Part shown: piece after piece, positions 2,455 to 63,085 of the stretch | How positions within the stretch are numbered: position 1 is the first letter of the stretch | Layout of the letters: every line of letters starts with the position of its first letter | Position numbers and translations under genes: made by a program | Origin: Balanoglossus misakiensis | Lineage: Eukaryota > Animalia > Hemichordata | Length of the DNA: 64,000 nt | Assembly: GCA_040954595.2 (NCBI GenBank) | Contig: CM082584.2 | Coordinates: forward strand, 11,808,552-11,872,551 | Direction: 5' to 3' | The notes under the pieces: generated by a model | What the model was told of the DNA's origin: nothing | The model's database searches: none | What the model saw: the letters and a program-made list of their open reading frames with translations, nothing else

Positions 2455-2884
2455 ATGAGTTTTGGGAACCACCTGGACCAGCGACAAGAGGGCATACCCG
2501 TCTCAATGGCTGGACATGGCCCACCGCAGCCACCGACTCTGCTCATACGGGCCGAAAAACCGTACCCTCGCACGCCGAAGTGTGCTCGCTGTCGAAACCA
2601 CGGCGTCGTTTCGGCCCTGAAAGGCCACAAGCGTTACTGCCGCTGGAGAGACTGCGTTTGCGCCAAGTGTACCCTGATAGCGGAGCGGCAACGAGTGATG
2701 GCCGCACAGGTGGCTCTTCGACGCCAGCAGGCGCAGGAGGAGAACGAAGCCCGAGAACTGGGACTCTTGTACGGCACCGCGGAAGGGGCCATCTTCACCA
2801 TGAACGGGCCACACGCATCGCCTCCTACATCCAAACCATACGACCCGTACAGCTGCCCGCCTTCAGACGACCCTTCCAGCCCAG
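2455..2884 (+). CDS. DMRTA2: DMRTA (Dmrt4/5, Dmrt99B-like) transcription factor, coding exon 1 containing the DM domain
   Basis: ATG in Kozak context (CACCATG) at 2455 gives MSFGNHLDQ...[73 protein letters not shown], nearly identical to the DMRTA2/Dmrt99B DM domain. It ends at donor CCAG|GTAAAA (phase 1). The symbol names the closest vertebrate paralog; the gene is probably the pro-ortholog of DMRTA1 and DMRTA2. Confidence 0.93.
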
Positions 2885-5800
2885 GTAAAAACCCACAACC
2901 AAATAAATTTCACTTTTTAACTTGCGCCACTTGGGCAATAAAACTAGGAGCACTTGTGTGAATATTGATGGGTAATCGATACGGCAAAACAACATGTAAT
3001 ATGTATTATTAACTTGTACTGTGGCACAACCACTTAACGCATTGTGTTCACATATACTTTTATTAATGGTTGCACTCAGCGAATATTTTTGTACAAATAT
3101 ACACACTTGACATAAAATTCAAGCTATCATAGAATGTTACGATGGAATTACGCATTATATAACATTCTACCAACCAGAAGCTATGCGGAAGCCTCTTTTG
3201 TCTTTAATAATTAGTTTTTTGAATTTTTCGTTTGTCTGAAATCGTAGTAACTATCATTGCCCCTATAAAAATACAGCAAAAACAGTCTTTTGGGGTCAGT
3301 AACACCGATCGCCGATCAGAGTTTAGCCGGATTCGAAGAAAATAGTCTTCATGATTGCTAGGCACTTTAAAACTCAGTAAAAGTGCGTCTGGGTTTGATT
3401 TAGTTTGTTTTGATAAAAAGTAGATGTTTTTGAGACAAGTCAGTTAGATTATATAAGGAAAACCTCACCAAACTTGATTTTTTTATCTCATTCTGAATCT
3501 CCAATTTTGACAACAAGGACTGGTGTCTACACATAACCCTTTTGAATCACATTGTAAACGCCGGACCTAAACGTTCAGCCGACCACGTGACCCAAATAGA
3601 AATGATCTCAATTGCAGTTTTTTTGTGAAACAAATCTACAAATTTAAGCAGTTACTTGTTATGTATCAAAACAAGAGCTAAACACAGGCCACCGACTTTC
3701 TTTCTGTCAAGTGTCTGTCTACATTCTTGGCAAGATTAAGAACCCTCTATCAGGCGACTTGGTAACCGAAGAAAAAAAATCGGAACCCCCTTAATTATAC
3801 CGTTTTACTCCTTCAACGCGCAAAAAAGAACAATTTGTTCCAATGCTGTTTTTGTCCAAATCGCTGTATTAGTAGCTCATTAGTCGGAATGAGGGGGGGG
3901 GGGGGGTCTTGGGAACTCGGTAAAGCTGCTTTTGATGTCTTAAGACAAAGCTCGTCGTCTGGGAACACTAGTTTTTTTAGCTGTAGTGTACTGCAGACCA
4001 TCTTGAACTTCGGCGCGTTGCCTAAGTACACAGCCACCGTGTCTAAGAGTCAGACTTCAGAAACACAGCAAAGAAGCAAATCGCGACACTGTAGTGCGGA
4101 CCCCACCGCAACACCGTCCCATTCACTGCCCATCCACAGCAACTACATGTCCGGCCCGGCCGAAGAACTGGACACATATATGTGGACTGTCCAATGCGTC
4201 AGTGTTTGTCAATGTGTACTTACGGCAGATATGTTGTTTGTTTGCCACTGTCGTACGCAAGGACGCTAAACATCAATCTCAAGAAAATCCCGGCTGAAAT
4301 TCCAAAGACATGTTTCTCGCGCGGTTATAAGCTTATGTATTTTTTCTAAACCAGGAAAATCTACAAATTAGACACTTTTGTTTCACACTTTAATAACCAA
4401 GGCCGAACAGAACAGAACGGAACAAAAACAACACAACAACCGACGAGTGATGGCTAAGATTCTATGTCATTTGACCTTAAAGTGTTTGAAGACCGACCCA
4501 GACAGTCCTTGTGTATACTCTCTGAAAGCCGGCGAATGTGTACGCGGGTATAGAAAGCCACCGGTGCTATCCGCCAGCATTGGGGGTTCTCCTCAGTTGT
4601 AATCTATTCCTCCCAACACCAGGATCCCAGTCTATGACATTTTTATCCGGCCAATCCTGAAACCCACATACACATAGACGCTGACACCTTTATACGAGAG
4701 GAACGCACCCGGCCGAGACTTGACTGGCTATCGGAGGCGAAACCAGCGCGTTGTGGTCACTTCTCGCGCAGAAACGCCACTCGCAGTACGCGCTTCTGTC
4801 GGCTAGGCAGCGAGAAGTCGAGCAGTAAATTATCAAAAAGTCAAAATCCATGCCTACTTCGACCATGCGAGGTTGAAAGCTGAGCCATAACGTTATTTTC
4901 TTCTAACGGGAAACGAGATTTCTTGTTGAATGACTTGAACTCGAAAATCTTTCAATAAAAAAACAATGCTGCAGAAGTTTGAAATTTTTTCGATGTTCTA
5001 TCACTCAAAATTCTAAGAAAGATTTAATGAAATGGGGCGGAATCGTGAAATTAATGAGCCCACATTGTGTGGACCGGAGTGGCACGGATCGAATCGGTTA
5101 TTTGATCTCCGAAGGTGGGAGCTGTTAGCTTTGACTTACATGATTATAAATTTGAGCTCCGGTGACGAAATATCCATTTATATCGATGTAATCCGTGGAA
5201 ATATCAAGTCGGTCATGAACAGTGATCTCGTTCCCCGTTACTGACAGATCGCCGTGGTGTATAAAGTTTCACTTTTTGGGGAGAATTACAAAAAAGTCTC
5301 TTTGAAGTGGACCTATCATGGTTGCGCATCACAAAGTTGTATTCCCCGGAGAGATATGCAAAGGGTACCGTTGGGATTTGACAAAGGGGAAAATTCAGCA
5401 ATACGGGAAAGCAAGAAATCAATTAAAAGACAAACACAATGCGCTTGGCATCAAGCCGCGCGAGTCGCGTCGTAGTTGTATTGGCCAGCTCAGCTCGGGC
5501 TTTCGGTCATAATGGGTAACGGCGCAGACAAACGAGACGAACACGGCAACGGAACAAATAGCGGCGAGTTAGCATTGTAAAAGTTTCATTTTCAGGGGGG
5601 ACGTTTGAACCCTTCCCTTCAAAACCGTCTATGATGTTTCCATCAGATGTTTACAACATTAAAAGAAATCTCACAAAGGGAGGAAAAAAACTTCGAGAGA
5701 AAAAAAGAAGTTTGTAGCTGAAACTCTGTCAGTGTGTATAAGGGAGGCGCTTGAAAACACGCTATTAAGCGATCAAAGGAGAAAGAGTTCGATCGCAGGC

Positions 5801-8800
5801 TGGTCCCTGCTCACAATATATCGGGTTCTTTTATTTGGTTATCAACTGCACATGGGGGAAATATTGAAAAGCTCTTTAAAGGAAGCCACAATCCACCATA
5901 ACACTTGCCACAGAGTGTTTTTTTGAAAAGCTTTTTGCATTGAACTGTCATGTAAAGATGGCGTGTTGGAGGAAATCCACACCCCGGCTTACTGATCGGT
6001 GCGAAACGCCCTCAGAAAGTGGATGTCAAGTTGACAACAAGTTTCCTCTAACCTAAAACACTGTGACGGCAAAAAAAATACGAGATACCGCCTTCTTGGT
6101 GTACAGTCGTAATCTTTTCGATGACAGGTGTTGGCCGTCAAAAGTCGGTGCCTGCAGACGGGTCCGTTCGTCTTGTTTACTTTATAGCGGTCGGCGCCAC
6201 TTCGCGTCAATATCTAGGAAGTGATCCTCAGTCAGAGCGCCAACTGTTTTCTTCATCATTTTCGCGATTTTGTTTTTGTTTATTCCACAAAACAACTCGC
6301 TGACTCCAGAATATCCCCCAAACACAGCGGGTTAATTTCCAAAATATCCGCGCGCATTGACTTAAAATAAAATCGTTTGAGCAATTATCCATATTTACTC
6401 AAAGAGGCGTTGACGAGCCCTAAAGTACCTAATTAATGAGAAGCCCCAAAATTTCGACATGATTTTAATCGGGATTCAAAGGTACAGGTGGCGTGTACTT
6501 TGAATTAATGAACTTGGAGTGAAAAGAGAGTAACTTCTCTCGCGAGAAACCTGCAGCAAGGAAGAACAGTAAACAGCATCGCGTCGCTGCTTGAGATTTG
6601 CGGTGTCTAAAAAGGACCCGCACAAGCGCTGTCATTTCCAGAATTATCTCTAGAGGTCACATTCTGAAATAATTTGAAACTGTTGATAAAAAATGTAATG
6701 CCAGCATATATAACAATTGTAATGTGTTTTCCAGGAACGCTTCCAGATCTGTGACACATGTACACTGCGGTTGCCAGTTCTGTGAGGCCTAAATGTACTG
6801 TTCCGGTAATTAATTGTAGGAAGAAATGAGAGAATATTTGGCGCAAAGTGAGCTGGCATAAATATAGATATTCACAAATGACTATTTTCGTGTCACTTTT
6901 ACTGGGATGGTCGAGTGATGGATTCATTTCATGTAATTACACGTTTTCTCTTACAAAAGGAAAAAAAACGACGTTCGGTAAAAAGAGCACATAAAACTCC
7001 TCACTCTGTGGAAAATTAAAAATGGAAACTGTACTGTGTTTCATTGTTGAAGGCAAACAGGGTGCGACACGTATACACGTCTTTTTTTGTAACTGAGCTG
7101 CGGCAGGACGAATTTGCGGACGGTCAGTTCGGAAGCGAGACCAGCGGGTGACCGTTTAAATCTCTAATGGAGAATCTAAAGCCCGTCAAAGCCTCATCGC
7201 TTGATAATTGAATAGACATCCATTTTTTTTATTTTTCAACGATTTCAAGTATGGTTTTCCATGGCAACGATCATAGAAAGGAGACCAATGCCTAGCGAAA
7301 GGAATGTGAAAGCTTGTTACCGTATTCAAATCAGGGGAAATTGGCGGGATTCCGCGCGAACACTTCATGCGAGAGTTTAATAAATACAGCGTATGTTATG
7401 TATCGAACTAATAGAAATGATCGAGAATTGATTAGCCTCTGATGAATCACCCCGAACAATCCAATTTTCGACGGGAATTTTTTGACTGTGAGCCAAATTG
7501 ACAACAGTCTTGGCCCCATTATGGCAGCCTTGCTACAGACGCCAACGGCAGAGGAACAAAAACACTCGGGGTAAAATGGTTTAGCGGTTTCGTTGGAAAC
7601 GGTGTTTTTTATTAAATTTTTCACTCACTGGGAAAAGTGATCAAGGCTTTGCGTTTGAGTGGCTCCACTTCAAACTTCCTTTTTCTAAAGTGGGCAACCG
7701 TTGTTGGGAAGACAACTCGGAATAGTTTCGGCGCACAATGAACCAGCAGGTAGCCAACGACAGGAAAGATTTAAAGATCGTAATCTCCGTCGCTCCTAAC
7801 GAAATAACATTAACAGCGACTCCATATGTACATATTATGATAAACGCGCGTGTCTCCGGTAATTAACAATTATAATGAGGGATAAATTATTTGAAAAAAA
7901 AATCACGCGATTTCAAAGACAAATATAATGTGAGATATGAACAATAAGCTTAACAATAGATTAGATATTTCTGCCTTCCGTAACCACTTAACAATTTATT
8001 GTAATTGATGTGAATGTCATTGTAATGTAATTATAGATAATCGCTGGGATACGGTTGAATATTATCGATCATAAACGCTGCTGCTATCTGCAGAGGAAAG
8101 AAAAGCGTGGCTGTTCTATACAACAACAGTTCTCACTTTGCCGTACCATGCAACTACCAGCAACACGCTTTAAAAGTGTGGTCTCTGCTATTAAAGTTCA
8201 AAACGAGCTATGTTGACTGTTGCATATACATGCAATACCACTGTTTTTATTTCTATTAGTTTGAAAGATGTAAAATGACAGATCTCCCTGTGACGAATTT
8301 TATCGCCCCCTAGTACGCGGGGAGCTCGGCGGGTGGCCAGTGTGACGCGGCGCGGGGGCAGACAATCTATGCTTGCAGCGTAAATGCCAATACTTACGAA
8401 ATCTTACGGCACTCAGTCACGTGGAATTAATGGGTAAACCCTCTGAAGCTGACAGTCAATGGCAACCCCTTAGCTGTCCGCAATTCACGGATTTTTTCGC
8501 CCATTTTTTCTTCTTCTCAAAAATAGTTATAAGTTGAAACAAAAAAGTATGAATATTTATAACAGACGCGGGACGCGCAGAGGTAACGCTATCGCGGAAG
8601 GCAGAGGGCAAAGTTAAACGCTTACACACAGATGCATTCATTGCAATGCAACAAGGGCCACACCTGGTGAAATTGTTACACCCAGTCGCTCTACTGTAAT
8701 CGTCAATTCACTTGGCGCCAGGTTTTTAACGCTAAACCACCCCTGTCAAGAAATTTAATGAAGGAGTAACGATCTATTGACCATCGCTTTGTTAAAATTC

Positions 8801-10044
8801 TATCTATGAATCGAGGCTATTTTAGAGATATGACATTTGGAATAAAATTTGATGCGCCTTGCATCGGCAGCTTGTTGCTTGGTATTGTCGACAAATAAGT
8901 GGCGACCGTTTTGTTCTTCTGGTGGTGGCAAATTACAAATCTATTGATTAAAAGCCTCTTTGTGTGGAATGGCAGGGACTATTAAACGGTTGAAAAATAG
9001 AAATTGTACACACAATACCAAATGAAATAGGCATTCTTTTCAGCTTGTACACAAAACAGCATGTGAAGTTTTTTTCTCTTTGTCATGCGGAGTATCAGTT
9101 TTCAAAACATGCTTCCACATGCTTAGAATCTGCTGCCTTCACGCGATCACACTCTAGGATGCAGTGTAACGTGTTGGGGAAAAAGTTTGACTCCAAATTT
9201 TTGAACAGAATAGCCTATATTGACTTGGCTGAATGTTCAGGCGACGGCGGCGTCTGAAATTTTTTTGCCCTCGGTGAAAGTCATCTGGATGGAGGCTTCT
9301 CTAACGCTATGGAGTTGAGAAGTGTCGCCACGGGATCTGTCCAATCACAGCACGCACTCGTGTGCGCAAAAACCGGAAAACGAGGCAATCTTACAGTGAT
9401 GTACAATTCATAGGGCAATTAGATAGTGAGCCTTTCCGACCTCCAAGGTGGGAATAATGGCCAGAGACAGCCTGCTCTGACACACCGTGAAATTGACAAC
9501 GCCGCTTGAACGGACGCCGAATCAGAACTGTATGTCAATATCACCCCGTGTCATCGCGCGATTTGAACACATGATTAATTTCATATTTGTATCCGGTAAT
9601 CACATTTCATCTTGTACGCTGACACCGTACGCATGAATTAATAGGATTATTTCATCGCTGGCTTGCTCGCCTCCCGACAAAAACTACACGGCCGTCGGCG
9701 TGTTTACCATTTCCTGCCCGCTGATTACGGCCCTATATTTTTGCGCCTTCTCGGCGGAAATTGGTCGGAAAGTGCGGGGAGAGACGTGCATGGAAGATAA
9801 CGAAATCGAATTGCACCTGTTCATTGCGCGAACTCATCCATGTTGAAAGTTGATTTCTTTCGTTTTTGAAACGATACCGCCCGTTTAGTTTGCAATCTTG
9901 AAGATTTAAATATGTCTCGATTCCTCGTTTGATGATTTTGATATCCTGATAATGGCATCATTGATGGGGAATTTGTTTTGTAAACGTGTTCTGACGTACA
10001 GTCCACACGCAAAATTGAGCGTAAGTTTTTTCTTCTTTACGCAG

Positions 10045-10961
10045 ATCTCAAGCGACCAAGACTGGATTTCTCTCTTCCCACCGTACATGGCGCTCCAGCC
10101 GCCACCTCCGCCGATCGGAAGTCGGCCTCGCCGGCGACGACGGCCAGCGATAGCGGCGTCATATCGCCCGACCCGCAGACGTCATCGTCGGCGGAAAACA
10201 GAGCACTTTCCCCGGCGCCGCCGACAGCGTCCGTCACACCGAAAGAAGAACCGCAGAGTCCCGACAGCGACGACGTCGATGACGACCCCAAGGCGGAACA
10301 TTTGCCGCTCAAAGAGCGGGTAACCCCGGAACCCCGTCACAGTCGCGATACTTTCGGGGCTGTAACGGGTAACAGCGGGGACGCTTCGTCGGGCAGAACC
10401 CACCGTTCACCGATAGAAATTTTATCTTCCGTATTCCCAACACAGAAGCGGAGTGTCTTGCAGCTGATTCTGCAAGGCTGCAACGGAAACGTGGTGCAGG
10501 CCATAGAGCAAGTTTTGAACAATCACACGGGCCCGCAGCACCACAACCCGATGACAACGGTACCCGTGACGTCCAACGGATCCATACTGACGCACAGGCC
10601 GTACCTGCCGCAAGCGCCCCTCAGTTCACCGGGACTCAAATCGGCCTTCTCGCCGATACCGTCATCCGACCGAGTCCACACCAGCGTAGGGTTGGGCATC
10701 AACCCGGCGGTCCGGTTCGCGTACGCGCCCCACCCGCGGGGGTTTGCCTTCGTCAGCCCCTACCCACCCGCCATGATGCCGCCAATCGGCGCGAGGCCCA
10801 TGGCGGACTTGAACTACAGTTTTAGCGGCATCATGCGCGGAATGTCGCACGGTCACAAAGATCGTCCCAACGGCGGAGTGTTCCCACTCTACGCCACCTC
10901 CTGCCGCTGCAAAGCGTGCCTGTCAAACGACAAGTCCCAGTCCTGTGTTAACGAACAGTAG
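10045..10961 (+). CDS. DMRTA2: DMRTA coding exon 2 (DMA domain, SAFSP motif, stop)
   Basis: Acceptor TTTTTTCTTCTTTACGCAG| at 10044. The phase-1 join gives D-LKRPRLDFSLP..., open and in frame with the 10302-10961 ORF. It contains the DMA domain RSPIEILSSVFPTQKRSVLQLILQGCNGNVVQAIEQVLN and KSAFSP, and stops at TAG 10959-10961. Joined CDS is 1347 nt = 448 aa; intron 2885-10044 is 7160 bp. Confidence 0.92.
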
Positions 10962-19446: not shown

Positions 19447-19527
<81 letters not shown>

Positions 19528-19652
19528 TACCACCCCATCTACCACCACCACCTACCACCACCACCACCACCACCACCACCACCACCACCACCACCACCAC
19601 CACCACCACCACCACCACCACCACCACCACCACCACCACCATCATCATCATC
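19447..19652. repeat. Compound microsatellite: (ATC)27, then an (ACC)n tract, then (ATC)4
   Basis: Read directly: ATC units at 19447-19527, a degenerate junction, ACC units to about 19640, then ATC again. This explains the poly-H/I/S/T/P/V/G ORFs in the track. Confidence 0.97.
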
Positions 19653-29550: not shown

Positions 29551-29769
29551 GGAGCGGGTAAGAGGTAAATCTAGAACTCGTATACTCAATTAGGCACCCC
29601 TAATTATACAATAAAGCGTAACTGAGACCAGTCTGCTATTTGGGTGGCCGCTGTTGAAACTGCAGAAAGTAGGCGGTGCGAAGAGTGATACATATACGCC
29701 AACAGTCCCGTTAGTAACCCACGTTCTGAAACCGTAGGTTTTCACCTGTGGGTCCATCGCTGTACATAC

Positions 29770-30199
29770 ATGTTTAGAGCTGTCCACTTCGGTGATCAGT
29801 CAAGCCTGTACGCAACCACCGCCGCCGCAGCTGCAGACATGGACGCGACGGTGACACTCCTTCGGGGACCGGTGACTGAGAAGGGAGCCCGTAAACCGAA
29901 ATGCGCCCGGTGCCGAAACCACGGAGTGATATCGTGGTTGAAGGGGCACAAGCGACACTGTCGCTTCCGAGACTGCACATGTCCGAAGTGTAACCTGATT
30001 GCCGAGCGACAGCGAGTCATGGCGGCCCAAGTAGCCTTGAAGCGACAGCAGGCAGCCGAAGACGCCATTGCATTGGGGCTGCGGGCATGTTCACCAGGTG
30101 GCCCCTTCCCGTTGTTATCGTCCGGCCCGCTGTGGCCCGAATCGGAACACATTGGAAGCATGAACGATGACGACGATAAAGACGACGAAAAAATGGACG
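29770..30199 (+). CDS. Dmrt93B: Dmrt93B-like transcription factor, coding exon 1 (DM domain); alternative start ATG at 29839
   Basis: [66 protein letters not shown]. The [11 protein letters not shown] and [14 protein letters not shown] signatures are characteristic of the Dmrt93B clade. Donor GACG|GTAAGA, phase 1. Confidence 0.9.
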
Positions 30200-33100
30200 G
30201 TAAGATCACGTCAGACTAGTCTTAAAGGTCAAACAATCGTTCTTTTAAAAAGTCTTTGCCTGTGTATAACTTTCGCATCATATTGAAGATCTGGTATTTT
30301 TTACTTTAAGTTTGAGGCTTATGCGTCAACCTCTCAGAGTGAATAACACAGGAAAATATCCTGCCAAATTAAATCGTTTTGATCTAAACATCTTGTTTTA
30401 AACCAGCTTCTAAGATTCAGTGATTGATACATATAAGCTTTAGCAGTAAACTTCTTTTGAAGTTGCAAATACGTACTTATCATTGTTTGGTGGATTTGAG
30501 ATAAAGGCACTGTAAGCCGTTGAAGTAGTCATTTAACAAATTGAGAAGGATAAACGTACAATCAGTAAGTGTCACTGCTTAAAATATAATATTTTGTTCA
30601 GGACAGTCCTCCAACGTTAAAACCCAAATTCACAGGATATTCTTTCTGGATTATTCCCGCTTTAAATACGTGAAATTAAAGCGATTTATGGGTTAAAAAA
30701 ATTATACGTCCTGATTTTGATATTTTATTTGCGAGGTATAGGAAAGATATTCTATACTGCGTCACAATGACCGCAATGCGACCGGCGAACGACACTTTGC
30801 TGCAAATGTCGTCCTCGGCAGCCAGCATTGTTGTGTGATTTATTCTAACCACGCCAAATATCTGACAGTTAAACGGGAGAGGAGCACAAACGATACATTG
30901 GGTCTCCCTCTGCCATTGAAATACCGGGGCGTAACTTCATAACGCGAATACCAAGCGGTTTGCGAGACCGGATTAGGAGCCCACCGGATTCCGGCGGCAG
31001 CCGAAGTAAATGACATCATCAGAACGCGGTCGTTTCCAGCCAGAATCAGATGTGACGAAAAAAGACAAACAATCGCGCCATCCCGACATGTAATGAGATC
31101 TAGCTTCCAGATTTCTCGACTCTGTCATATCTGCTCTCCGCGCAGACAAAAGGCATATGTGGAATAGCTCCATGCAATTTCTCCGTCGTAATACAAAATG
31201 CATTGCAACAAATGGGACATAACTTGACGCTTGAAATATCAAATGCCAGATTTAGGGCTGGCAAAAAACACCCACACAGTTTGTGCTGATGTCACAAGCC
31301 GTTGTTTCAATCAAATTGATTGTTTCTTGTGGCCTATGGGGTGTCCAACGGGGGTTGTCGTTTTTTAACGACACATTTTAAGGTTTATTCCAGGGAGTGT
31401 ATTTCACCAGTGAATTTCAGGAGCCCGTTCTCGTGCCGTTAATTAAATCTAACAGGAATTCAACAGGTCTTCAGAAAACACTGCAAAATCTCTATTGGTT
31501 TAGCTTTTCCCCGCGGGACACAAGCATTGCAGCGTTGGCATAGTCTTTCAAGTTCATCTCGTCGCTGCAGCATGCGAATCCGTAGACAGCCCTGCCAAAG
31601 CCCCATCGCTTGAATTCGTTGTTCTGAGGGAGTCAACCAACCAATGACATACAGGCAAGCGTGTGGAAAGGCCTACGGACCCGCATCAACATGGCGTTCC
31701 ACACGACGCGAGAAGTATGAACCATCGACAGGCAAAATTTGTAGTCAAATTTGTGCATTTTGAGCTGAAACCAATGAGTTGTTTTGCAAGGGAGTTGAAT
31801 TCACTGAGAAATATAGCAACGGCGAAACTGACAGTGACAGATAAGATTTTATGTGGATACAGTACAGCGTTACTTTTTTCAGAGCGACATCCTCGAGTAG
31901 GCAGGCAAACACGTCAGGGCCATGACCTTGTCCGCATCAGCCCGCTTTAGTCTTTAGAAATTTGAAATCGGTTGCGTCCCGTCGGTGCAAGGGAGAAACG
32001 AACACAACACAGTTCTCTGTGTGTGTCAATTTTCAAAGTCACGAATATCAGAAAAATATGTTCACCGCTGAGATGAGAATTCGCCCGAATGACAAGCTCT
32101 ATAAACTTCACGTGGAGGGGGACAGCAATGTGCCAAGTTGAAAGCCGAAACGCCAGCACTCATTTCTGAAGGGTCCTCATCGCCGCTATGACAAGGGAAG
32201 AAAACACGGAAACAAGGGGAATAAACGGTTGGGCGTGAACTGAGAGGCTCCGTCGTCACAAGCACGGGACAAGTTGAAGTTTATATTTCCCCCGAGTGGT
32301 TTAAACATAACCCCGAGCTCAATAACCGCGCACTCTCAAACCCCCTCAACCAAAAACAGAATATTAATAATTCGTGGTTTAAAATCAACATTTATGATGT
32401 CTTTTTAAAATCGAATGAGAATGTTGGACTTCGAGAACTAGGTCCATGCATTTGCCTGGCATTCTGCGATGCCATTCTTCATAATTCGAACAACAGCCAG
32501 TTGAAACATCTCAAAACACCGGCCAAGTCGAAGACGTGAAACTTATCATCATCCTAAATGTTGTCAATTGCTTCTGATGTGTGTTTATTTTCGTCCGACG
32601 GAAAATTGCAATATATCAACTCCTAGGTTATTGGCTGTGATTGAAATCTACACTCGGCCCTGTTTATTTTGAATTCAATTAGTCGCACATTCACATGTAA
32701 TGATTCTAAAATATTTTTATACAAAGGGCGGGTTTAGGAGAATCAATTTCGAAATCAATTCTCGGACATGAAACACCAAGAATTATTTGACATGGTCTTT
32801 CGATTGATTTCAAATGTCCGAGTTCGCCGACCCGTGTAGCTATATCTTCCATTTCCCCGCCGGTTTGTACTTCAATAAAGTTCGTTCAAGTGAAATCAGT
32901 GTCGCGGTATCGCCTCGCCAAAATTTTGCCACCAACACGCGTTTAAGAAACGTTGAAATGGTAAAGTTTGGGAAAATTCGTTTATAGATCTTAAGAGATG
33001 ATGCAATTGTATATCGTTGACAGTGTTATCAGAATATTCCCCTGTATTCCTACGATGGCGTGTCTGGGGTGTAGTGGTGCGTAAGAAAGAGGCCAGCGGG

Positions 33101-34082
33101 CCCAACACTTGCAGTCGATACATACGGCAATTTTGATGACAAAATCGACAAAATAAACATAGCAGTTATCTTCGGTATTAAATTATAGCCATCGTGTTAG
33201 CTTCTGTTGTTCCTTCCATTTGAGAGAACACGAACAGCGCGAGCGATGTGTCGACAACGACAGACCAGACAAAATGATTACGGCTGGCAAGCGAAACCGC
33301 ACTCTGGATTGACACTTCGCGGCACATACTACTGGCCCGCAATAGATCAGGGATCTGCCGTGTTCATATATCGGTTATGTCAATAAGCTACTGTCAGCGC
33401 CTCCGACTTTTATCTCAAAATTCTGATCGGTGTTGACTGCGCCGGACTTGTGAGATTAAAACAAATGGTTGATGTTGCCAAGCACCGTCACTCGCCCCTT
33501 CTTTCTATGACTGACCAGAGCTGATACCATATTGGCTTCCATATTGTTGAGCGTGAAACGCGGATAAATATCTCGTTAACTTCGTACTTGCAGTGGAAAG
33601 AATAATACGCGATGTGTTCATTTACATGGTTGACTACGTTTGTGCTATGTCCCTCTCCCCAAAGTTATTTTGTTAAAAACTCCGCTCTCCTAGAGTTGTA
33701 TGCATATGCACCGTCAGCCTGACCGGCCTTCGACAGGCTTTCATCTATTGGTCCTGTTGTCAGAGCTTGTCAAAAACGAACGATACTGTCGCTTTATACT
33801 GGTGAAATTTTCTAAAATTAGCTCAATATCCGATAATATTCGTACGTTATGCATAGTTTTAGTAAATTTCTCGCCCAGATATTTGTGTGTTTGACCAGTA
33901 TTTTATAGGATATTTTTCTGGTCATGAAAAGTAAACGCGTTTACAGAGTTGATAATAACAGTTCGTATATGAGCTTATGCGGACTCAAATCATAAGTCAT
34001 GCCATGTTCTTTAAAGATAATGCGCGAATCGTTGTTTATTTATTATTTTTAAAGCCAAATTCGTTTATAAACATATTTACAG

Positions 34083-34945
34083 AAAATCAGAGGCCAGGAG
34101 AGGGGAAACACTGTGACAAGGATGAGGAGGACAGAGAATCACCAAGCACAACGAGTACGCCCGATGGAACGTCGGAGACGACAAACAACAGAATAAGAGA
34201 GAACAACTATAACAATATAGCGACAGCGATTCCGCCTTTTCGACCTGGTAGATTGTCGCCCATTGAAATCCTGATGCGAATTTTTCCTGCGCAGAAGAGG
34301 AGCGTGCTGGAGCTCGTCTTGCAGGGCTGCAACGGCGATCTGGTTAAAGCCATCGAACACTTTCTCTCTGCAAGCGACTCCTTTCTGCTGACGGAGTCCT
34401 ACGGCGGCACTTCCAAGATGGGACCGAACGCGGCCGCGTCGCTGCGATTCGGAGCCAATCCACCGAGCATCCCGTGCTCCAACGCTAACTATCTGGCGGC
34501 TTTCCGTCCCCCGCCGCCCACGAACGGCAAAGTGCCCATCGGCAGCGTCAAGTCTGCCTTCACCCCCTTGCCGTCGCCCGCGTCGACGATGAACTTGGCT
34601 TTCCCGCCGCGGTTGCACCCGTTCTCCGCCGAGTTCCTCCTCGGGAGGACGTCCTTCCTGGCTCCGCCGCGACCGGGTGACACGCCGTACACCTCGGCAG
34701 CCCCGCACTTTACGCTACCCGCGCTCTTTCCGATGCCGCCACCGACATCGCACAACAAACTACCTCCCACAAGCAACGGATTTATATTCAGCCACTCCGG
34801 ACTTGGCGGATGCTTTCCTAACTGTTCGCAGTGCCCGCCGAAACTGGATCTGGTGGAAACGGACAGCCAGACTTCAAATTCCAAACTCTCCTCACCGGAA
34901 AACACGCCACCGATACCACAGTCGTCACAAAACGACAAGAAATGA
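34083..34945 (+). CDS. Dmrt93B: Dmrt93B-like coding exon 2 (DMA domain, SAFTP motif, stop)
   Basis: Acceptor ATATTTACAG| at 34082. The phase-1 join gives E-NQRPGEGK... in the frame of the 33977-34945 ORF. It contains the DMA domain [39 protein letters not shown] and KSAFTP, then a TGA stop. Joined CDS is 1293 nt = 430 aa (407 aa from ATG 29839); intron 30200-34082 is 3883 bp. Confidence 0.9.
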
Positions 34946-38631: not shown

Positions 38632-38775
<144 letters not shown>

Positions 38776-52300: not shown

Positions 52301-54631
52301 TAATTCATTGTGACAACTGGTGCATCACCACCACCACTCAGAAAAAAAACTTTCAAGTCAGCTGTACACTGTGATGTTAACAGACAACGTGCTGCCCAAT
52401 CCCATGACGTCACATATAGTAAAACAAAAAAAAAGCTATACAGAAATATATAAAATCGCGTAGTTAATGGACTGCCACTGCAAGTCGTCATTTGACAAAA
52501 ATCAAAGCGACAATTAGCCACCAAAATGTCTTTCTAGATGACGAATTAAATATGGTGAAAAGTTTGACAAACTTTCTGTTGTATCATATAAATAGAGACA
52601 CATATTACAAGACGCACAGCTGCCGAATTTCTAGATTTATGAGACACAGTGAGTCGGTAGAGAGCGTAGTTTGTAAGACATGTACGTCGCGAAGTTCCTC
52701 ACCCAACAATAATGACTCTAGTTTCCATTGGTGAAGGTTAATAAGGAAGGGGAGGGGTCTTCTGAAATTCTTAACAATAAAAAGGTTCATTTGTTTGTTA
52801 TAAATCACTGAGTTTTAATGGGCAGCTTCGACAGAGATAACTAGGCTTTTGGAGTGCACTGGTAAACAATATCTTGAAGTCTTGTCAAAGCGAGGCAACC
52901 TTCGCGTGTTTGCCCGCTGGCGTCGCATCTCTATGTCGCCTCGCCGTCTCTCTATACAGATTAGCATACGGTACATTTAGCTTCAATTAACGGGGGTGAT
53001 TGAATTCAACAGGAACAATATTGAAAGTTACATTTCTTTTGTGCAATATACCACAAAGTTTGTTTGTTGTTTTTATAAACCCAACAAGACTTAGAGTATA
53101 TCGTATACAGAAAACAAAGTCATGTTGCATTTGGCTTCAACAACAAATGTTTAAGCAGCTTACACCCTACCCTACTTTAGCGGCTCCACCGATAGAGAAA
53201 TGTGCATAAAATTTAAACTTCTCTTTCATTGGCCGATTTAATGGAACAAATCAAACGAAAGGGGACATACTTGCTTTGTATTACCAAAGAGGGCGACACA
53301 GCCAGATCCTCACTCACACATGCCAAACAACTCCAAAAAGGAAAACTAACAATGGTTTTAATTTTTATTATTTTTTTTTATTTTCAAGACTAGTGAATTA
53401 AATTAAAAGAACATTCTGGTTATATTTCAGTGAAGTGACGTGTAAATAAATTCATATACCTGCATAGCCGGCGTCCATGATAATTGCCTCCTGTCAAGTT
53501 AGAATTACTATTTTCTTTTTCAGTATTTTTTCCCATTTATCAACTCAAGGTGGAGCCAAGTTGTGCCAATCATGACAGGGATGGCAAAGGTCAAAATGAT
53601 GGACACCTTCTATGAAATTATAGCATAAATAAGTGGCGTTGATTCGTTAAACTGCCACAATTAAAAATTATTTACATTTATGTTTCGTCTTTTTAAAGGA
53701 AAGGGTACATTACTGTTACAAACACACCACAGAGCATTCGCGTGCATAACAGAAATAATAGAACTTAAAATGAATATTTTAAAATCAGATTAGAATACTC
53801 AACAGGCACAAACACACAAAATTGATTGCAACTTACGTTAGACAAGGAACATGCCCGAATTAGAAATAAATATTTAGAAAACAAATATTACTATACCACA
53901 CACCACGTATGTATATATTGCACTTCAAAAAAATGTACAATAATATGTTTACATCGACGTCAGCAGAAGGAAAGTAGCCATTACTATTGAAGGTAAAAAG
54001 CCAATTTCTCACAGAAATATATTTAAAAAAATTAAAATGTGCTAATATTGTAATATCGTATTGTATAATCGGGTAAAATTATACACAATAATGTTAATTT
54101 TAATGTATATTTTTTCTGCTATTTTGAAGAGTATTGCACAAAAGGTATAGACAGTTTCTTGCACCGTGGCACAATATGCAAATTTTGGCCGCAGTGGTTG
54201 ATTAAAAGCACACGAGTCAAAGTTCATTTAGGTCTGCATCAGTTAGTCCCGTGGATCCACAAAGCAAACCGAAATTCGACTAAAAATTCATTTATTTATT
54301 TTGTTCCTACCCTTTGTCTTAAAATTTATGTACAGCATTAGGTAGTACATGTATTCTACACGTGTTTTTGAGTCACAGAAAAAATGATACAAATGTAAAT
54401 ATACGCAGTGGATATATATTAACTTTTAGAGTCAATTGATTTGTCCTAAGCATACCAAGATAATGCTTGGTCTGATTTTTCAGCTGAGGTACTTATTTCT
54501 AGATATACCTCCACGAATTCCACAGGAACAGCCTCGAGTAACTGTTGGTGAATAGATTCGAAGTACTGGCTCCGGTAGCCCTGGTGTCGCATTTTCTTTA
54601 ACTTAAAATAACGCGTTTTACAGTGTGAGCC

Positions 54632-54739: not shown

Positions 54740-54861
54740 TCATCGCAGCTTGACGTAATCTCTGAGTCGGTCAGGTAGATCGCTACTGACCTCATCGATT
54801 CTGTTGCCACACGCCTTCCTGATCGCCAGCCTACACAGGTGTTGTAAGGTTTGAGTCTCCT
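54740..54861 (-). CDS. INK4/CDKN2-like gene, coding exon 4: SOCS box and stop
   Basis: Acceptor TTGTGGCTTTTGCAG|, phase 1 matching exon 3. Translates (E)ETQTLQHLCRLAIRKACGNRIDEVSSDLPDRLRDYVKLR*, with a BC-box (TLQHLCRLAIR) and an LPxxLxDY C-terminal motif. Too short for the ORF track. Confidence 0.82.
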
Positions 54862-54939
54862 CTGCAAAAGCCACAACAGTACAGTCGAGAATTAGTTAAG
54901 ACAGCAAGAACTCCTTCTTTGCAGATTTATACGCCTTTA

Positions 54940-54969
54940 CCTCTAGAGGGCGCTGTTTCAAAGATGGCG
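54940..54969 (+). promoter_or_regulatory. CTCF-like motif adjacent to a YY1-like motif
   Basis: CCTCTAGAGGGCGCTG at 54940-54955 (consensus CCASYAGRKGGCRSY, 1 mismatch), followed by AAGATGGCG at 54961-54969 (YY1 core). Confidence 0.5.
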
Positions 54970-56390
54970 ACCGGACCTGGTTATTTTGGTCGCCTACATT
55001 AATTCGTCGTTATACCAATATAAATCTGTTCCCAGTGTTGCAGCCTGCGTTGGGGCGAATGATTAGTTAATGGCTAATGGGGCGAGTAAGACTTGTCAAC
55101 ACAATAGGGATAATGTAATAGTTTTTGGTAAACTGATCGCCATGCGCTGCAATGATATATCTTGGGTGCTTTGGGGCAAGATGGTTAGTCGTCGAGAAAT
55201 GCTTAAGATGCTCAGCATTCTTTAGCCGTGACGCTGACTTGGTCAAGTGGTAGGGCGGCAGCTTCGTGAGTTTGCCGTGATACATGTAATATGTGATGTG
55301 ATGACAGTCTTTTGGTATTCTCCGTAGAATGGTATTTTACAGACAGTATTTTGGATTTGCTTTACACAAACAAGAATTGCTTATTTTTTTATAAAGTAAG
55401 AACCATTTTCATTAAAAAGAAAACTAAGGAAACAATTCAACGCATTTCAAAAATTCAAAAAGCATGGGGGAAAGACGCGAAGTGACCGTGGTGCAAATCT
55501 GTAGCCGCATTTATCGCCCCATCACAGGTCAAAGGTGACTCGCGAGGGTTAGAGTTTAACTCATTGGCTTCAAATTTCCCATTTAGCGGTCATAAAAGTC
55601 CCCAGGCGTCCATTTGAAGCGACAGGCATTAACGCGAACACTCTCCGTCGCGTGCCAGCTTTTTAATTCGGTTTCCAAGCGACGCTATCAAATGCTGCCC
55701 GCGGGAACCCTGGATCAACGTGACCTTATTTTAGGGGTCGCAGACGATAGTTTTCAACCCGCAGCGTTGGATTATGTTGGCCATTGATTGATTAGGCCTG
55801 CAGGCGGACGCGACGCCCAGATGTGTTTTGGCAATGAGCAACGCCACATGTAATATGCAGTGTCTCTTTCTATATGCTTATTTCAATTAGGCCAAGCATT
55901 AATCTGTTCCAAATATCGGCCGCTTTGCACAGAATAAATTTCACAATTATTGCAAAATTGTCGACGGCCGGGGTTGCTGTTCGTACCATCGTCATCCATG
56001 TGTACATGTATTAGCATGGCTTTAGTCGCCATCTTTAGCCCGCGTATGAAATATAGTCGTTATTTTAAAGCACACTCCGACAACACGTACACGTGTTGGT
56101 GAGTGTCACATCTGTTGAGGAATGTCTGACCTTTGACATTATCTTTGACTTTCTTTCGTCGCTCTCTTCTGAATGAGTAAAGCATAGTGGATCCCTAGAG
56201 GGAGCTGATGCTATTTCAATTTCAATAAAAATATGGATAGAGGCTGCGAATTTAAGTGAGCGGTTTCGGAATAATTTAACTGGTATACCAATACCAAAGA
56301 AAAGACTTCGTGTATTTATAAAGCCCAAGTCAAGTTGCTGTCGGATTACTCAATAAACAAACAAACAGATGAAAAAATATTGTCACCTAC

Positions 56391-56508
56391 CTAGGATGGC
56401 TCTTACACAGTCAACGAGTGCAGGTCTTGCTGAGGCTATGTCAACCACCGTCTGTGAGTTTGAATTTCGGGTGAAAAGGTAGCTTCCTCTTGACAAAAAC
56501 AGTAATGC
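56391..56508 (-). CDS. INK4/CDKN2-like gene, coding exon 3 (end of ankyrin repeat 4 and repeat 5)
   Basis: A long C/T tract ends in CCCCTCAG|. Phase-0 reading gives ALLFLSRGSYLFTRNSNSQTVVDIASARPALVDCVRAIL, resembling the fifth repeat of p18/p19 (RNxxGxTxxDLA). Donor CTAG|GTAGGT, phase 1; 118 nt. Confidence 0.8.
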
Positions 56509-56778
56509 CTGAGGGGAGGGGGGGGGTGAGGGAGAAAGAGAAAGAGAGAGAGAGAGAGATGGAGAACGTTAATCCATTTTTATCACTTTTTACGCAAAAC
56601 ATCCATCCGTCTGTCCAGTGACTGTCTAATCTGTCTATCAGTTCGCAAGCCTGGTCGTTTTCAATCAATCGATCAATCAATCAAAAGATATGTCTATCGG
56701 TCAGTCAGTCAGTCAGTCAGGTTCCATATATGTTTTATATGACTTAGGTAAAATCACGTGTGTCCATCATAAGCTTAC

Positions 56779-57000
56779 CTGTGTGTTGCCTTTCATTGCA
56801 GCTACATGTGCCGGCGTGTTGCCTAGCTTGTCCTGAAGAGTCAGATCGGCGCCCTTCTCAACCAGAACTTTCAGAGTCTCCACGTAACCCGATTGAGCGG
56901 CATCATGGATCGGTGCCCTCAAGAAATCGTCGGTCTCGTTCGGATTGGCCCCGTTCTCCAGAAGCATTCGGGCGATGTCGGCGTTACTGAAATTCATTGT
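56779..57000 (-). CDS. INK4/CDKN2-like gene, coding exon 2 (ankyrin repeats 2-4)
   Basis: Acceptor AATTCGCAG|. Translates TMNFSNADIARMLLENGANPNETDDFLRAPIHDAAQSGYVETLKVLVEKGADLTLQDKLGNTPAHVAAMKGNTQ, aligning with p16/p18 (…VAELLL.HGA.PN..D…PVHDAAR.GFLDTL..L…GA…D..G.LP..LA). Donor CAG|GTAAGC; 222 nt, phase 0/0. Confidence 0.92.
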
Positions 57001-58042
57001 CTGCGAATTGGTGATGAGAAGTGGTATAAATGCAAACTCATCATTCAATGAAGGTAAACGAAATTTTTTTTCACTCATTAAAGGATTTAAGAAGCATAAC
57101 ATACAGTAAACTAAAAGGAGACATTTTTTCATTCCATCTCTGCGGCGTTGCTTCTGAATTCTTTAAAGCCCCGAGTAATTTCACTGATTGTCGCTATCTT
57201 CCAGGCGCGTATAATCAGTAATTCCTCCTGATATATTGACGTCACACCAGAATAGCATCGACCTTTCACCCTCTGAGAGAAAGAACGACGCCGACATCTT
57301 TCTATTTTGGAACAGCGCCTCTCTGCATAAGTCAGAAGTTTGTCCTACCACGAAAATAAATGTAGTTGCAAAAAAAACGAGCGCCGCAAAGCAAGGCAAT
57401 ATTTTCCTCTTGTGCTAGTCATAACAGCGTCAGAACTTCCTCCAAGTTACATAATAATATAACCGTCCTTCATGTTAAAAATATTCCGGCGTTGGCAGAC
57501 TTGCTCTTAAGGCTGAACTCGTTTTAAAATTGGCCGGGGCACTGTGAGATCAGAAGATCGATTTGAAGGGCAAGACATACACACCACATGTGATATAATG
57601 ACGTCATTCTAAAATTGAAATACTGTCAACTCTCATTTGGCTTCCCCGCAATAACCTCTGCATGGGAATATTGACAGACGGCAGTTCAGACTGACAGAAA
57701 AAAATGCACTCCAAGAGGATGTTTACGATGATCACATGGACGGTTGGCATTTTATTATGTAATGGATCACATTTAAAAAAATTGTGACCAGTGATATATT
57801 TACCAGAGAAAAACAATCACAAAGCCACTTGTTCGATAACTGGTCGGAAAAAAATTATCACGGTGACTTGTATCACGTTTCACATCAAATTCAGACGCGC
57901 ATGCCTTTTCAAAATAACTTATGGTGTACAAATGTACGTAGAAGAATTCTCAACCAGAGTGTAAAATGTGAACTAAAATATGATTCAGTTTGAGGTAATT
58001 GATGTGTTTTCAAAGATGCAAATTTACACGAAGGCGACTAAC

Positions 58043-58183
58043 CTGTATGGCCGTCCTGTTGTAAGTGTTGCGTTGGTGGACGCTCACTCCTCGGGCAAGG
58101 AGATCGCGAACGGCGACTTCATCTCCCCTGGCCGCAGCTTGCGGCAACGACAGCTGCTGGACTTGTCCGCCATGTTCGTCCAT
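58043..58183 (-). CDS. CDKN2: INK4/CDKN2-like (CDKN2C/p18-like) cyclin-dependent kinase 4/6 inhibitor, coding exon 1
   Basis: MDEHGGQVQQLSLPQAAARGDEVAVRDLLARGVSVHQRNTYNRTAIQ|GTTAGT matches the INK4 first repeat (L..AAARG..E.VR.LL..G...N..N.YGR.(P/A)IQV). The phase-0 intron falls after the same Gln as in vertebrate INK4 genes. An acceptor (TTTTTGTTCTTGCAG|CG ATG) lies 2 nt before the ATG. Full CDS is 603 nt = 200 aa. Confidence 0.9.
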
Positions 58184-61100
58184 CGCTGCAAGAACAAAAA
58201 TATTCGTGAGTCCGAACGTATCTTCAATTTTAAGCAACATATTGGCGTAGACGCATGCAGACAAGAGTCGCAGTAGTATTTTATTTGCACGTCTTCCTCG
58301 GTCGATGTTGCGATCAGTTCCTAGTATCTGTGGCAGTAAATCAGTCCTGGCGGCGTCGATGTTTCACATCACTTGCGCAGTGATTGAATAATTTCAGAAT
58401 AACGCGTTCACCGCCCCGTGTCCGAGCATCAAACAGACGCGAGGCTATATTCGGTTACACACACATACTTGGGGCGTTGGTTTAATGTGGGTATGCGAGT
58501 GTGCCGTATCACGGCTCGGCGCTCAAATTAGCCACATTAAAATTAGATTCAACCTTAGTATGGAAGATTAATTTACAGGTCAAGGCCAGGGGTCAATGTG
58601 CTTCTGGATTACGCGAAAAATAACTCTCGAGTCTCGATAAGGACTGTTAGTCCTAGTCCCAGATAGGGCCTATAGCCTATGCTCATGTTACTTCTCTAAG
58701 GAACCATTATTTTACCTAGTTATCTGTAATCCGATATTATAGTAGTTATACACCACATTACTGAAAGCGTATTGTGCTTTATCAGATTTTTTTTACAGAA
58801 GAATGCGATGAAAGTTCTTAAACCAATATTGCAAACTGCAATCCTAATTGACCTACCGACGAAACAATATTTAAAGGACATAACCGGTGTTGCGGCAAAA
58901 TCAAACATCTTTCTTTTCTAACGATGACTCGTATAACGTTTGCGCATTTGCTCACAGTGGAAACTGAAGTTCTAACACTGTAGTAAGAACTAGAATGTTT
59001 TCATCGCGTTGCGTGGCAACCCATGCATCTCTCTCGCGTGACTTTGTGTTCGACATCTCACCCGTCCGCCGCGCACGAACCTTAACCACGCGTTTACGTG
59101 TACGCACGTAAAAACGAAAGCATTGTCATTTCATATGAATGTGAATCTGGAACAAGTCCACCCTTGTTTGGAAAGTACGCTAAAACAATGGGTGCCGCCG
59201 TGTTTCAAGCATATAATTTGATTCAATCTTTGCATATTTTTTCATTGCTGCGTTATTATGGAACATATTTTTACACCCAACTTGTGACGCGCAAAAACAG
59301 GCAGGAAACGTCGGAGTTTACTCCGCGAAGCAGGAAACAAGCGCTTATCCCAAAATAGACTCAGACGAACTAAAATGAGATCATTTGAGTTCAGTTGCCT
59401 GAGATTCAATGCTCGGTTCTTTCGGGCAGCCACAACAGATGAATTGTTTAGGGTTATTAGTTTGTTCAACCTTTAAACAAAGTTAACCGGCTCAATCTTT
59501 GTCCGCGGTTTTACTGTGGCATAAATCAACGCCTGAATAAAAGAAGCGTTATGAATTGATTTTTTGTTTCACTTCCCATTCAATTCTTTCACTAGAAAAA
59601 AACATTCAGAATACACGTCACATCTGTGTCAATAAATCCGCTGTGAAATCGCGGAATAAAAATGGGCAGGTGCACAGTTACGAAAATTTAAAAAAATAAC
59701 ATACTAGTATGTTAGTATTCTTGTATACTATGAGTCATACTGAGTATGAGGAATGCGATAAAATAATGGAGGTATGTACTCACTTGTTAATTCCAGTGGG
59801 ATTTACGCAGGCCAAGTACGGATATAGCGATCGAGTTTAAGCGCTCCACTTCCAGTCTATAGTACACGGGCAAAGATGTCAGACACTACAGCATCGTACC
59901 GCAGGTGAAGGCAAGGCAGAAAACGTTTAAAACGGCATTGGAGTTTCTGAAATATTTAACAGTGACGTGCTTGTTCAACCATTGAATACAATTACGATTT
60001 ATGCTGAAAAGCATTAAATCATAAAATAACAGTGGCAAACGGTAGTTTCCGATCCCCGGGGCATTTCAGGTGAGATAATATGGTATGGCATTGCGTCCTG
60101 GCAATCGGTGCTGTTAATGTTGTGAGTAGGCGCTTACGATGCGAGTTATTTTGAAAGGCGCCACCACATGGCAATTATTTGTACCCTTCCTTCTTTCTTT
60201 CTGTATAATCTCAAAGTCGAAGTTCGGGTGTTGGTTTGTGTTTGGCCAGTGAAGATGGAATAACATGAATTATGGATAAATCATAATAATATGGGTAGAT
60301 CATAACTCATAATGTAATGGGATATAGACATTGCCAGCCTAAATGTTTTGTCACCTCTATTTATATTTCAGAACTAACAATGGCTAGCCTCATAGATGTC
60401 AGCAGGTCTCGCTCCACTGGCTTGATGCATACACCTGTCCTACTTAACGATGAGTCAGCCATCATTACTTGCGACGGTGGGTGAAATTATACCTTCTCGG
60501 GTAGGATATTAGTGAGGGGGATTTTTACAAAATGGATGTATCTCGAAATGAAACTCGAGCGCCAACAAAGATATATCACTTTCGGATGGCTCTAAAATCA
60601 CCGATGAGTCAGTTGTTCGTACCCGTCTTTGTAGGATTACGTGTCAGTATGTTTTCAGGACTTGCAAAATGTGTTTTTTCCCCAAAGTGACTAACAATCG
60701 GCAGTGAAAGTCCCCCCGTAATGTCAACATCCATCGGTATGGAAACTTCTAACAGGCTTTACCCCTGTGAACGCGAATCGAATTGTCACCGACGTATGAC
60801 ACAGATATGACAGGTGAAGTCCCCAGCCCCCGACGGAATGTCCCACCGTGTATTTTTGCCTTTCCAAGTAATTTAACAGTTTCGCTGCGAAAATTTACAC
60901 CCGCCTACGTTACCGAAAGTAAGGAGAAACGTAACGCAACAAGAGTTTGTCGCAGTAACACCAAGTCCGTCACTCACAAATGAAAAAACAGGAAAAACTT
61001 GAAGGGAGGGGAATGTCCTGCCTGAAAAGTAGATTTCTCCCATAGAATCGAGCAATGACACGTGTACACGAACGTTTAGAGCGGAAGCCTCCTGTTCAGA

Positions 61101-63046: not shown

Positions 63047-63085
63047 ATGGCGGCGAATAGAGAAGAAATTCTAGCCAATTTTCAG
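63047..63085 (+). CDS. FAF1: FAS-associated factor 1 (UBA/UBX protein), first coding exon; the rest of the gene was not found in the window
   Basis: ACAATGGCG start gives MAANREEILANFQ|GTATTT, which matches the FAF1 N-terminus (human MASNMDREMILADFQ|ACTG) with a phase-0 intron after FQ. It is head-to-head with a CDKN2 gene, as FAF1 and CDKN2C are in vertebrates. Only 13 codons are visible. Confidence 0.8.

Follow-up and report, generated by a model that had tools for sequence, protein, structure and literature searches.

The 64,000-nucleotide stretch of the hemichordate Balanoglossus misakiensis genome analysed here (GenBank assembly GCA_040954595.2, contig CM082584.2, positions 11,808,552 to 11,872,551; hereafter the window) carries on its minus strand a four-exon gene which, judged by its sequence and by the modelled fold of a close ortholog, is an invertebrate INK4/Cdkn2 ortholog, its five ankyrin repeats being followed by a SOCS box at the C-terminus. 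Vertebrate p15, p16, p18 and p19 are ankyrin-only stoichiometric inhibitors of cyclin-dependent kinases 4 and 6 (CDK4/6), and SOCS boxes recruit Elongin B/C together with a cullin-RING ligase. The gene is not of the chordate, ankyrin-only type because a SOCS box of 40 amino acids (aa) comes after repeat 5. A first-pass annotation made from the sequence letters had proposed four minus-strand exons with GT/AG borders, phases 0, 0 and 1, and a product of 200 aa; our analysis reproduced the coordinates (Table 1), the GT donor and AG acceptor of all three introns, their phases, and the sum of the joined exons, 603 nucleotides (nt) encoding 200 aa and a TGA stop. Used as a tblastn query against the window, the Ptychodera ortholog matched 4/4 exons in order, and exon 3 was matched by three hemichordate orthologs. 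Pfam scans assigned exon 2 to ankyrin families (Ank_4, E 2.6e-16) and gave a weak ankyrin match for exon 1 (E 0.055), and no family was matched by exon 3 scanned by itself. The phase-0 intron 1 falls between Q47 and T48, which aligns with the Q50/V51 junction of p16, so that the conserved first-intron position claimed in the first-pass annotation stands. Among the three acceptors, that of exon 4 scores lowest on a crude matrix (2.6 versus 2.9 and 4.9), and intron 3 contains no AATAAA and a single ATTAAA, at 55667. From the sequence we consider it highly probable that exon 4 is joined by splicing in B. misakiensis. At the other end of the gene, the in-frame upstream ATG extension, together with an acceptor-like site that lies within it two bases 5' of the main ATG, suggests that a further 5' exon lies upstream and that the gene has more than one start.

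Table 1. Features of the INK4-like gene and of its surroundings, in window coordinates.
Feature	Position	Strand	Remarks
Coding exon 1	58183-58043	-	141 nt; Met to Q47; ankyrin repeat 1 and beginning of repeat 2
Coding exon 2	57000-56779	-	222 nt; ankyrin repeats 2-4; carries D71, D80, Q83
Coding exon 3	56508-56391	-	118 nt; rest of repeat 4 and repeat 5; phase-1 end
Terminal coding exon 4	54861-54740	-	122 nt; SOCS box and stop codon
BC box, predicted Elongin C-binding helix	54821..54850	-	residues 165-174; fits (S,T,P)Lxxx(C,S,A)xxx-hydrophobic
Cullin box	54752..54778	-	residues 189-197; P190 is the fourth-position Pro, kept; leading LP of LPxP missing
Intron 3 start	56383..56390	-	unspliced reading adds Gly-Arg, then stop; possible 162-aa SOCS-less isoform
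Candidate polyadenylation signal	54295..54300	-	first AATAAA 3' of the stop, 440 nt past the exon-4 stop
In-frame upstream ATG extension	58184..58240	-	19 codons; resembles N-terminus of Ptychodera isoform X3
DMRT gene, Dmrta2-like (DM + DMA + DMRT5_DMB)	2077..10958	+	Pfam; Saccoglossus gene order
DMRT gene (DM + DMA), likely Dmrt3 by synteny	29689..34942	+	nearest detected gene on the 3' side of the INK4 gene
Candidate first coding exon	63047..63085	+	13 codons, then GT; oriented away from the INK4 gene, the two start codons ~4.9 kb apart

The terminal exon matches the Pfam family SOCS_box (PF07525) over profile positions 3-39 of 39 (E 3.8e-10), and its 40.3 bits, set against a gathering cut-off of 23.5, bear out the SOCS box that had been read in the last 40 residues; the same peptide aligns with the box of human SOCS2 (E 0.018). 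In a chance control comprising 1200 AG-bounded terminal open reading frames (ORFs) of 30-55 aa from across the window, a BC box followed by a hydrophobic-PxxLxxxL-type motif was found once, in exon 4 itself. The BC-box consensus (as given in PMC4878042) is present in 6/6 ambulacrarian sequences and in 0/4 vertebrate INK4 sequences. The cullin box is less complete. The Cul5 motif is described in PMC3355856 and PMC4812663 as LP-hydrophobic-P, with the fourth Pro weighing most and LPxP as needed for specific Cul5 binding; the cullin-box Pro and the hydrophobic pattern after it are preserved in 6/6 ambulacrarian sequences, and the tails of sea stars, Glandiceps and Dimorphilus carry LP- or xPLP-type motifs. 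A looser Cul2 (VHL-box) pattern, hydrophobic-PxxLxxxL, also fits the tail 14 residues beyond the BC box, the Cul2 box being defined in PMC3355856 as a motif of this type 8-23 aa past the BC box; this pattern is not discriminating because it fits inside the full Cul5 box of Glandiceps too. Modelled in isolation, the 40 residues of exon 4 form three helices (predicted local distance difference test, pLDDT, 80.6), for which Foldseek returned no match at E<=0.001 and VIA placed SOCS1 (Z 2.8) and ASB9 (Z 2.2) at noise level among unrelated rows.

The same ankyrin and SOCS layout is found in annotated proteins of Ptychodera, Glandiceps and Saccoglossus, whose tails score 30.6, 38.1 and 36.1 bits, respectively, and the box is present in 4/4 RefSeq isoforms of Ptychodera. 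Over the whole protein, identity is 60% to Ptychodera XP_070563695.1 and 51% to Saccoglossus XP_006816138.1. By exon, identity to Ptychodera is 30/46 in exon 1, 48/74 in exon 2, 17/39 in exon 3 and 25/40 in exon 4, with 20/40 each to Glandiceps and Saccoglossus in exon 4; thus exon 4 is conserved like ankyrin exons 1-2 and above exon 3. In the best 120 of 140 matches of a profile search, the top rows were Ptychodera, Glandiceps, Saccoglossus and two Diadema proteins, followed mainly by vertebrate CDKN2D/C/B. PF07525 was already precomputed on four database rows among the matches listed, those of the three hemichordates and of a frog ASB13. A 169-aa turtle protein labelled 'transcription factor SOX-30' had ankyrin Pfam matches only and a p18INK4c-like score, and is probably mis-annotated.

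Since ankyrin repeats followed by a SOCS box also characterize ASB proteins, we asked to which family the ankyrin region belongs. A tree was built from the B. misakiensis protein and 41 proteins hand-picked from 174 collected, namely 5 ambulacrarian proteins, 18 vertebrate INK4, 3 ASB13, 1 fish ankyrin-SOCS protein and 14 other ankyrin proteins. The six ambulacrarian and 18 vertebrate INK4 rows fell on one side (support 98/95) with the 18 chosen outgroup rows on the other; the ambulacrarian group (98/94) is sister to the vertebrate INK4 paralogs (88/86), and the B. misakiensis protein is nested in the enteropneusts as sister to Ptychodera (99/92). A grouping of the ambulacrarian proteins with ASB13 was rejected by the approximately unbiased (AU) test (p-AU 0.0044). 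With ASB13 and the one fish protein as the ankyrin-SOCS proteins sampled, the tree gives no firm sister group to the INK4 clade and points to no particular ASB as its source. Identity is 37-46% to vertebrate INK4 rows versus 34-35% to ASB13, the latter over shorter spans. The AlphaFold2 model of the Ptychodera ortholog (pLDDT 92.3) contains five helix pairs, in agreement with the five repeats first counted from the sequence, then three tail helices, and the first helix of its repeat 2 is only four residues long. Searched with Foldseek, this model retrieved p18/p19 chains at all of ranks 1-12 (template modelling score 0.88-0.91 over the target), and a narrower VIA run listed eight INK4 entries first (Z 20.9-21.4). 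Taken with the tree, the D84 equivalent described below and the Q50/V51 intron, these results uphold the earlier assignment to INK4 rather than ASB. A wide VIA search aligned the model with human ASB8-ELOB/C (Z 17.8, root-mean-square deviation, rmsd, 4.0, 191 aligned, residues 8-201) and ASB9-ELOB/C (Z 16.1, rmsd 4.8, 193 aligned); these alignments span the ankyrin part and the tail, and the overall layout is therefore like that of an ASB receptor. Less informative were word-based homolog searches with single exons, which returned generic multi-ankyrin proteins or nothing, ESM Atlas features of exon 2 only, which fell in generic ankyrin clusters, and PDB sequence searches, in which summed repeat scores let designed ankyrin repeat proteins (DARPins) and other ankyrins dominate and INK4 and ASB could not be ranked.

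INK4 contacts to CDK sit in the N-terminal repeats. In the CDK6-p16 complex, as described in PMC6170502, R31 of the kinase contacts D74, T79 and D84, aided by R87. With p16 numbering taken from Fig S1b of PMC11555623, the equivalents in the B. misakiensis protein are D71 for D74, R75 for T79, D80 for D84 (codon 56904-56902) and Q83 for R87, and in this alignment the two acidic CDK-contact positions, D74 and D84, are preserved. According to PMC11555623, D84 is kept in 57/60 invertebrate Cdkn2, in correlation with R24/31 in Cdk4/6, hemichordate Cdk4/6 retains R24/31 (Table 2 there), and the four-repeat p15 and p16 function without repeat 5; the tail therefore need not block CDK binding. Given these residues, the protein very likely binds CDK4/6 through contact of D80 with R24/R31.

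The locus itself was already known, because the Saccoglossus ortholog has been published as Cdkn2. Yuki et al. 2024 (PMC11555623) catalogued 61 invertebrate Cdkn2, XP_006816138.1 among them, on four criteria: an exon junction at Q50/V51, a set of conserved residues to which D84 belongs, placement in a tree that included 73 human ankyrin proteins, and linkage to Faf1. The strings 'SOCS' and 'ubiquit' have no occurrence in its main text or bioRxiv version; in the supplements other than files 14-16, 'socs' occurs three times, each time in the Faf1 synteny table. Nor was an INK4 with a SOCS box described in the literature titles and abstract openings found, which covered few subscription journals. 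The first-pass remark that no description of the architecture was known thus holds for the literature found, with the qualification that the orthologs are published as Cdkn2 and that their records already carry a precomputed SOCS domain: the feature is public on database records and apparently unremarked in the literature.

A survey of the 60 invertebrate species rows in Fig S1b of PMC11555623, judged by eye and without hidden Markov model scoring, found a BC-box-like segment past repeat 5 in 32 (Saccoglossus, 6 sea stars, 6 urchins with degenerate tails, 5 annelids, 13 gastropods and Lingula) and in 0/3 Branchiostoma rows. A further 9/60 rows are cut off before repeat 5 ends, and 16/60 stop in or soon after it, 15 of the 16 being models derived by tblastn; onychophorans, Patella, Nautilus, Phoronis, Sipunculus and crinoids are among these 16. 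Many short Cdkn2 models diverge just past repeat 5 at Gly, Ser, Cys or Arg. These are the residues produced by reading through xGT, which suggests that a phase-1 intron is conserved at this point and that last exons have been missed or skipped. Other departures are seen as well: the RefSeq protein of the crinoid Anneissia japonica has D84Q and is also without the tail, and caenogastropod Cdkn2 carry an extra Ser-rich extension of ~110 aa past the BC-box-like segment. The occurrence of the tail in Ambulacraria and Lophotrochozoa, and not in amphioxus or vertebrates, is most simply explained by a tail that was ancestral and was lost a single time, in chordates, so that ankyrin plus SOCS was probably the ancestral bilaterian form of INK4, with the tail lost once in the chordate stem. 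This distribution supports the earlier proposal that chordate INK4s lost a last exon and probably corrects its description of the SOCS box as a fusion; a recent lineage-specific fusion is rejected on account of the presence of the tail in both deuterostome and protostome rows. As to deeper origins, a cnidarian Cdkn2 has been claimed from unpublished work cited in PMC9178385, and PMC11555623 reports no Cdkn2 outside Bilateria.

On the DMRT side, the neighbourhood is that of Cdkn2. Two tandem DMRT genes of two exons each, with DM regions 77% identical, lie on the 3' side of the INK4 gene, and this Dmrt-Dmrt-Cdkn2 order agrees with the Saccoglossus order Dmrta2-Dmrt3-Cdkn2-Faf1. Of the FAF1/DMRTA synteny initially claimed, the DMRT side is borne out, and the FAF1 side rests on one 13-codon exon at 63047-63085, a FAF1-like candidate for FAF1 exon 1; Pfam scans of the 282 window ORFs of >=64 aa contained no FAF1 domain. 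In Saccoglossus, Faf1 is the upstream neighbour of the published Cdkn2, XP_006816138.1 (PMC11555623). Trinucleotide microsatellites (ATC x27, ACC x37 and ATC x48) lie within 19447-19641 and 38632-38775 and yield spurious low-complexity ORF matches.

These features suggest an inhibitor that doubles as an Elongin BC-cullin receptor. The ankyrin part would bind and inhibit CDK4/6, as p18 does; the SOCS-box tail would dock Elongin B/C and a cullin-RING ligase; and the bound kinase would also be marked for ubiquitylation. Binding of Elongin BC by the tail is very likely on the strength of its motifs, and the proposal that CDK4/6 is the ubiquitylated substrate we regard as evenly balanced. The cullin is most likely Cul5, with Cul2 as the alternative, and would be weakly bound, as in SOCS1/3, because LPxP is incomplete. 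SOCS1 and SOCS3 bind Cul5 10-100-fold more weakly and also inhibit directly (PMC4812663), and SOCS1 still promotes substrate ubiquitylation (PMC3355856, PMC4812663). Both serve as precedents for a kinase inhibitor that promotes ubiquitylation despite a weak Cul5 box.

A number of observations weigh against this inhibitor-degrader reading or against its components. The tail is dispensable for the INK4 role, since amphioxus and vertebrates manage without it. For S. purpuratus, L. variegatus and Asterias, RefSeq includes isoforms ending just past repeat 5 (Fig S1b of PMC11555623), and tail-less products may therefore be natural; the two Diadema tails score 17.4 and 18.1 bits, below the Pfam cut-off of 23.5, and the SOCS box thus erodes in sea urchins. 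The full LPxP is present in 1/6 ambulacrarian sequences, that of Glandiceps, and is incomplete in B. misakiensis itself, which lowers the standing of the protein as a canonical Cul5-box (CRL5) receptor but does not speak against its acting like one. At the CDK interface, Gln replaces p16 R87 and Arg replaces T79, two positions that also differ in many invertebrate rows. With respect to INK4 identity, the lead of INK4 over DARPins in the narrower VIA run is ~1 Z unit, the wide VIA search over cluster representatives was led by DARPins, with no INK4 chain in its top rows and a p18 nuclear magnetic resonance model at rank 39, and ESM Atlas features put the ortholog nearest ASB13/ASB9/ASB8/ASB7 rather than INK4, probably because of the shared architecture.

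Several alternative explanations bear on these points. The protein could be a stoichiometric CDK4/6 inhibitor whose SOCS box sets its own level, by Elongin BC stabilisation or by autoubiquitylation of the free protein, with the kinase not a substrate. Such a role would account for a Cul5 motif that is incomplete in 5/6 ambulacrarian sequences next to a BC box intact in 6/6, would parallel the weak Cul5 binding and direct inhibition of SOCS1/3, and accords with the toleration of tail loss by chordates; we nevertheless consider it doubtful, given the cullin-box Pro and following hydrophobic pattern kept in all six sequences, the LP- or xPLP-type motifs of the sea-star, Glandiceps and Dimorphilus tails, and the substrate ubiquitylation that SOCS1 still promotes. 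Alternatively, the protein could be a cullin-RING receptor for another target, either cyclin D in a ternary complex, for which the p18-CDK6-K-cyclin structure (1g3n) offers a precedent, or an unrelated protein bound by the ankyrin repeats, as the departures from p16 at R87 and T79 might allow. The retention of D84 in 57/60 invertebrate Cdkn2 and its correlation with Cdk4/6 R24/31 (PMC11555623) argue that the kinase is the conserved ligand, which makes another target improbable.

The SOCS exon could instead be minor or vestigial, with the 162-aa read-through form, a p18-like inhibitor of the usual kind, as the main product. The read-through stop two codons into intron 3, the weak exon-4 acceptor, the short isoforms annotated in three echinoderms and the degenerate urchin tails fit this explanation, which is rendered distinctly improbable by the conservation of exon 4 at the level of exons 1-2, by its inclusion in 4/4 Ptychodera isoforms and in the Saccoglossus and Glandiceps models, and by the position of the AATAAA, absent from intron 3 and found past the exon-4 stop. 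Finally, a conventional ASB-family gene with a superficial INK4 likeness, as the ankyrin and SOCS layout, the nearest ESM Atlas clusters and the restriction of ankyrin-SOCS proteins in the tree to ASB13 and one other might suggest, is largely refuted by the tree and AU test, the higher identity to INK4 over longer spans, the INK4-type intron, D84 and Dmrt neighbours in Cdkn2 order, and the publication of the Saccoglossus ortholog as Cdkn2 from a tree with 73 human ankyrin proteins (PMC11555623), and we hold it to be very improbable.

Returning to the reading of the protein as inhibitor and receptor combined, a tentative evolutionary picture, which we place a little short of even probability, is that the ancestral bilaterian INK4 was an inhibitor-degrader switchable by retention of intron 3, that p15/p16/p18/p19 arose from it when the last exon was lost in the chordate stem, and that hemichordates, sea stars, annelids, snails and brachiopods keep the degrader. 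Textbooks present INK4 proteins as stoichiometric inhibitors, and the family includes major tumour suppressors; an overlooked SOCS box on their invertebrate orthologs revises the account of the family's origin, suggests regulated CDK4/6 turnover within the G1 control of many animals, and raises the question of why chordates dropped the tail while the family expanded. If it works as proposed, the 200-aa protein would provide a natural template for a CDK4/6 biodegrader; because the exon-4 box aligns to that of human SOCS2, the proposal is directly testable in human cells, with sea-star or urchin embryos as a further test system.

Compared with known systems, the closest likeness is to the invertebrate Cdkn2 of PMC11555623, whose Saccoglossus and Ptychodera orthologs share the Q50/V51 intron, D84, the Dmrt-Dmrt neighbours and the tail; that account differs in that neither its main text nor its preprint identifies the tail as a SOCS box, and no part in ubiquitylation is proposed there. 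Vertebrate p18INK4c and p19INK4d likewise have five repeats, a short first helix in repeat 2, the D74/D84 equivalents and the fold, and vertebrate CDKN2C lies near FAF1 and DMRTA2, whereas p18 and p19 end after repeat 5 without a BC box and have Arg at the p16 R87 position. The Elongin BC-Cul5 receptors ASB8, ASB9 and ASB13 likewise have ankyrin repeats running straight into a terminal SOCS box; the Balanoglossus protein differs in its INK4-type ankyrin part, which stands apart from ASB13, and in its incomplete LPxP. SOCS1 and SOCS3 are functionally analogous as direct kinase inhibitors that carry a SOCS box whose Cul5 box is imperfect, and they differ in using SH2/KIR instead of ankyrin repeats and in targeting JAKs rather than a CDK.

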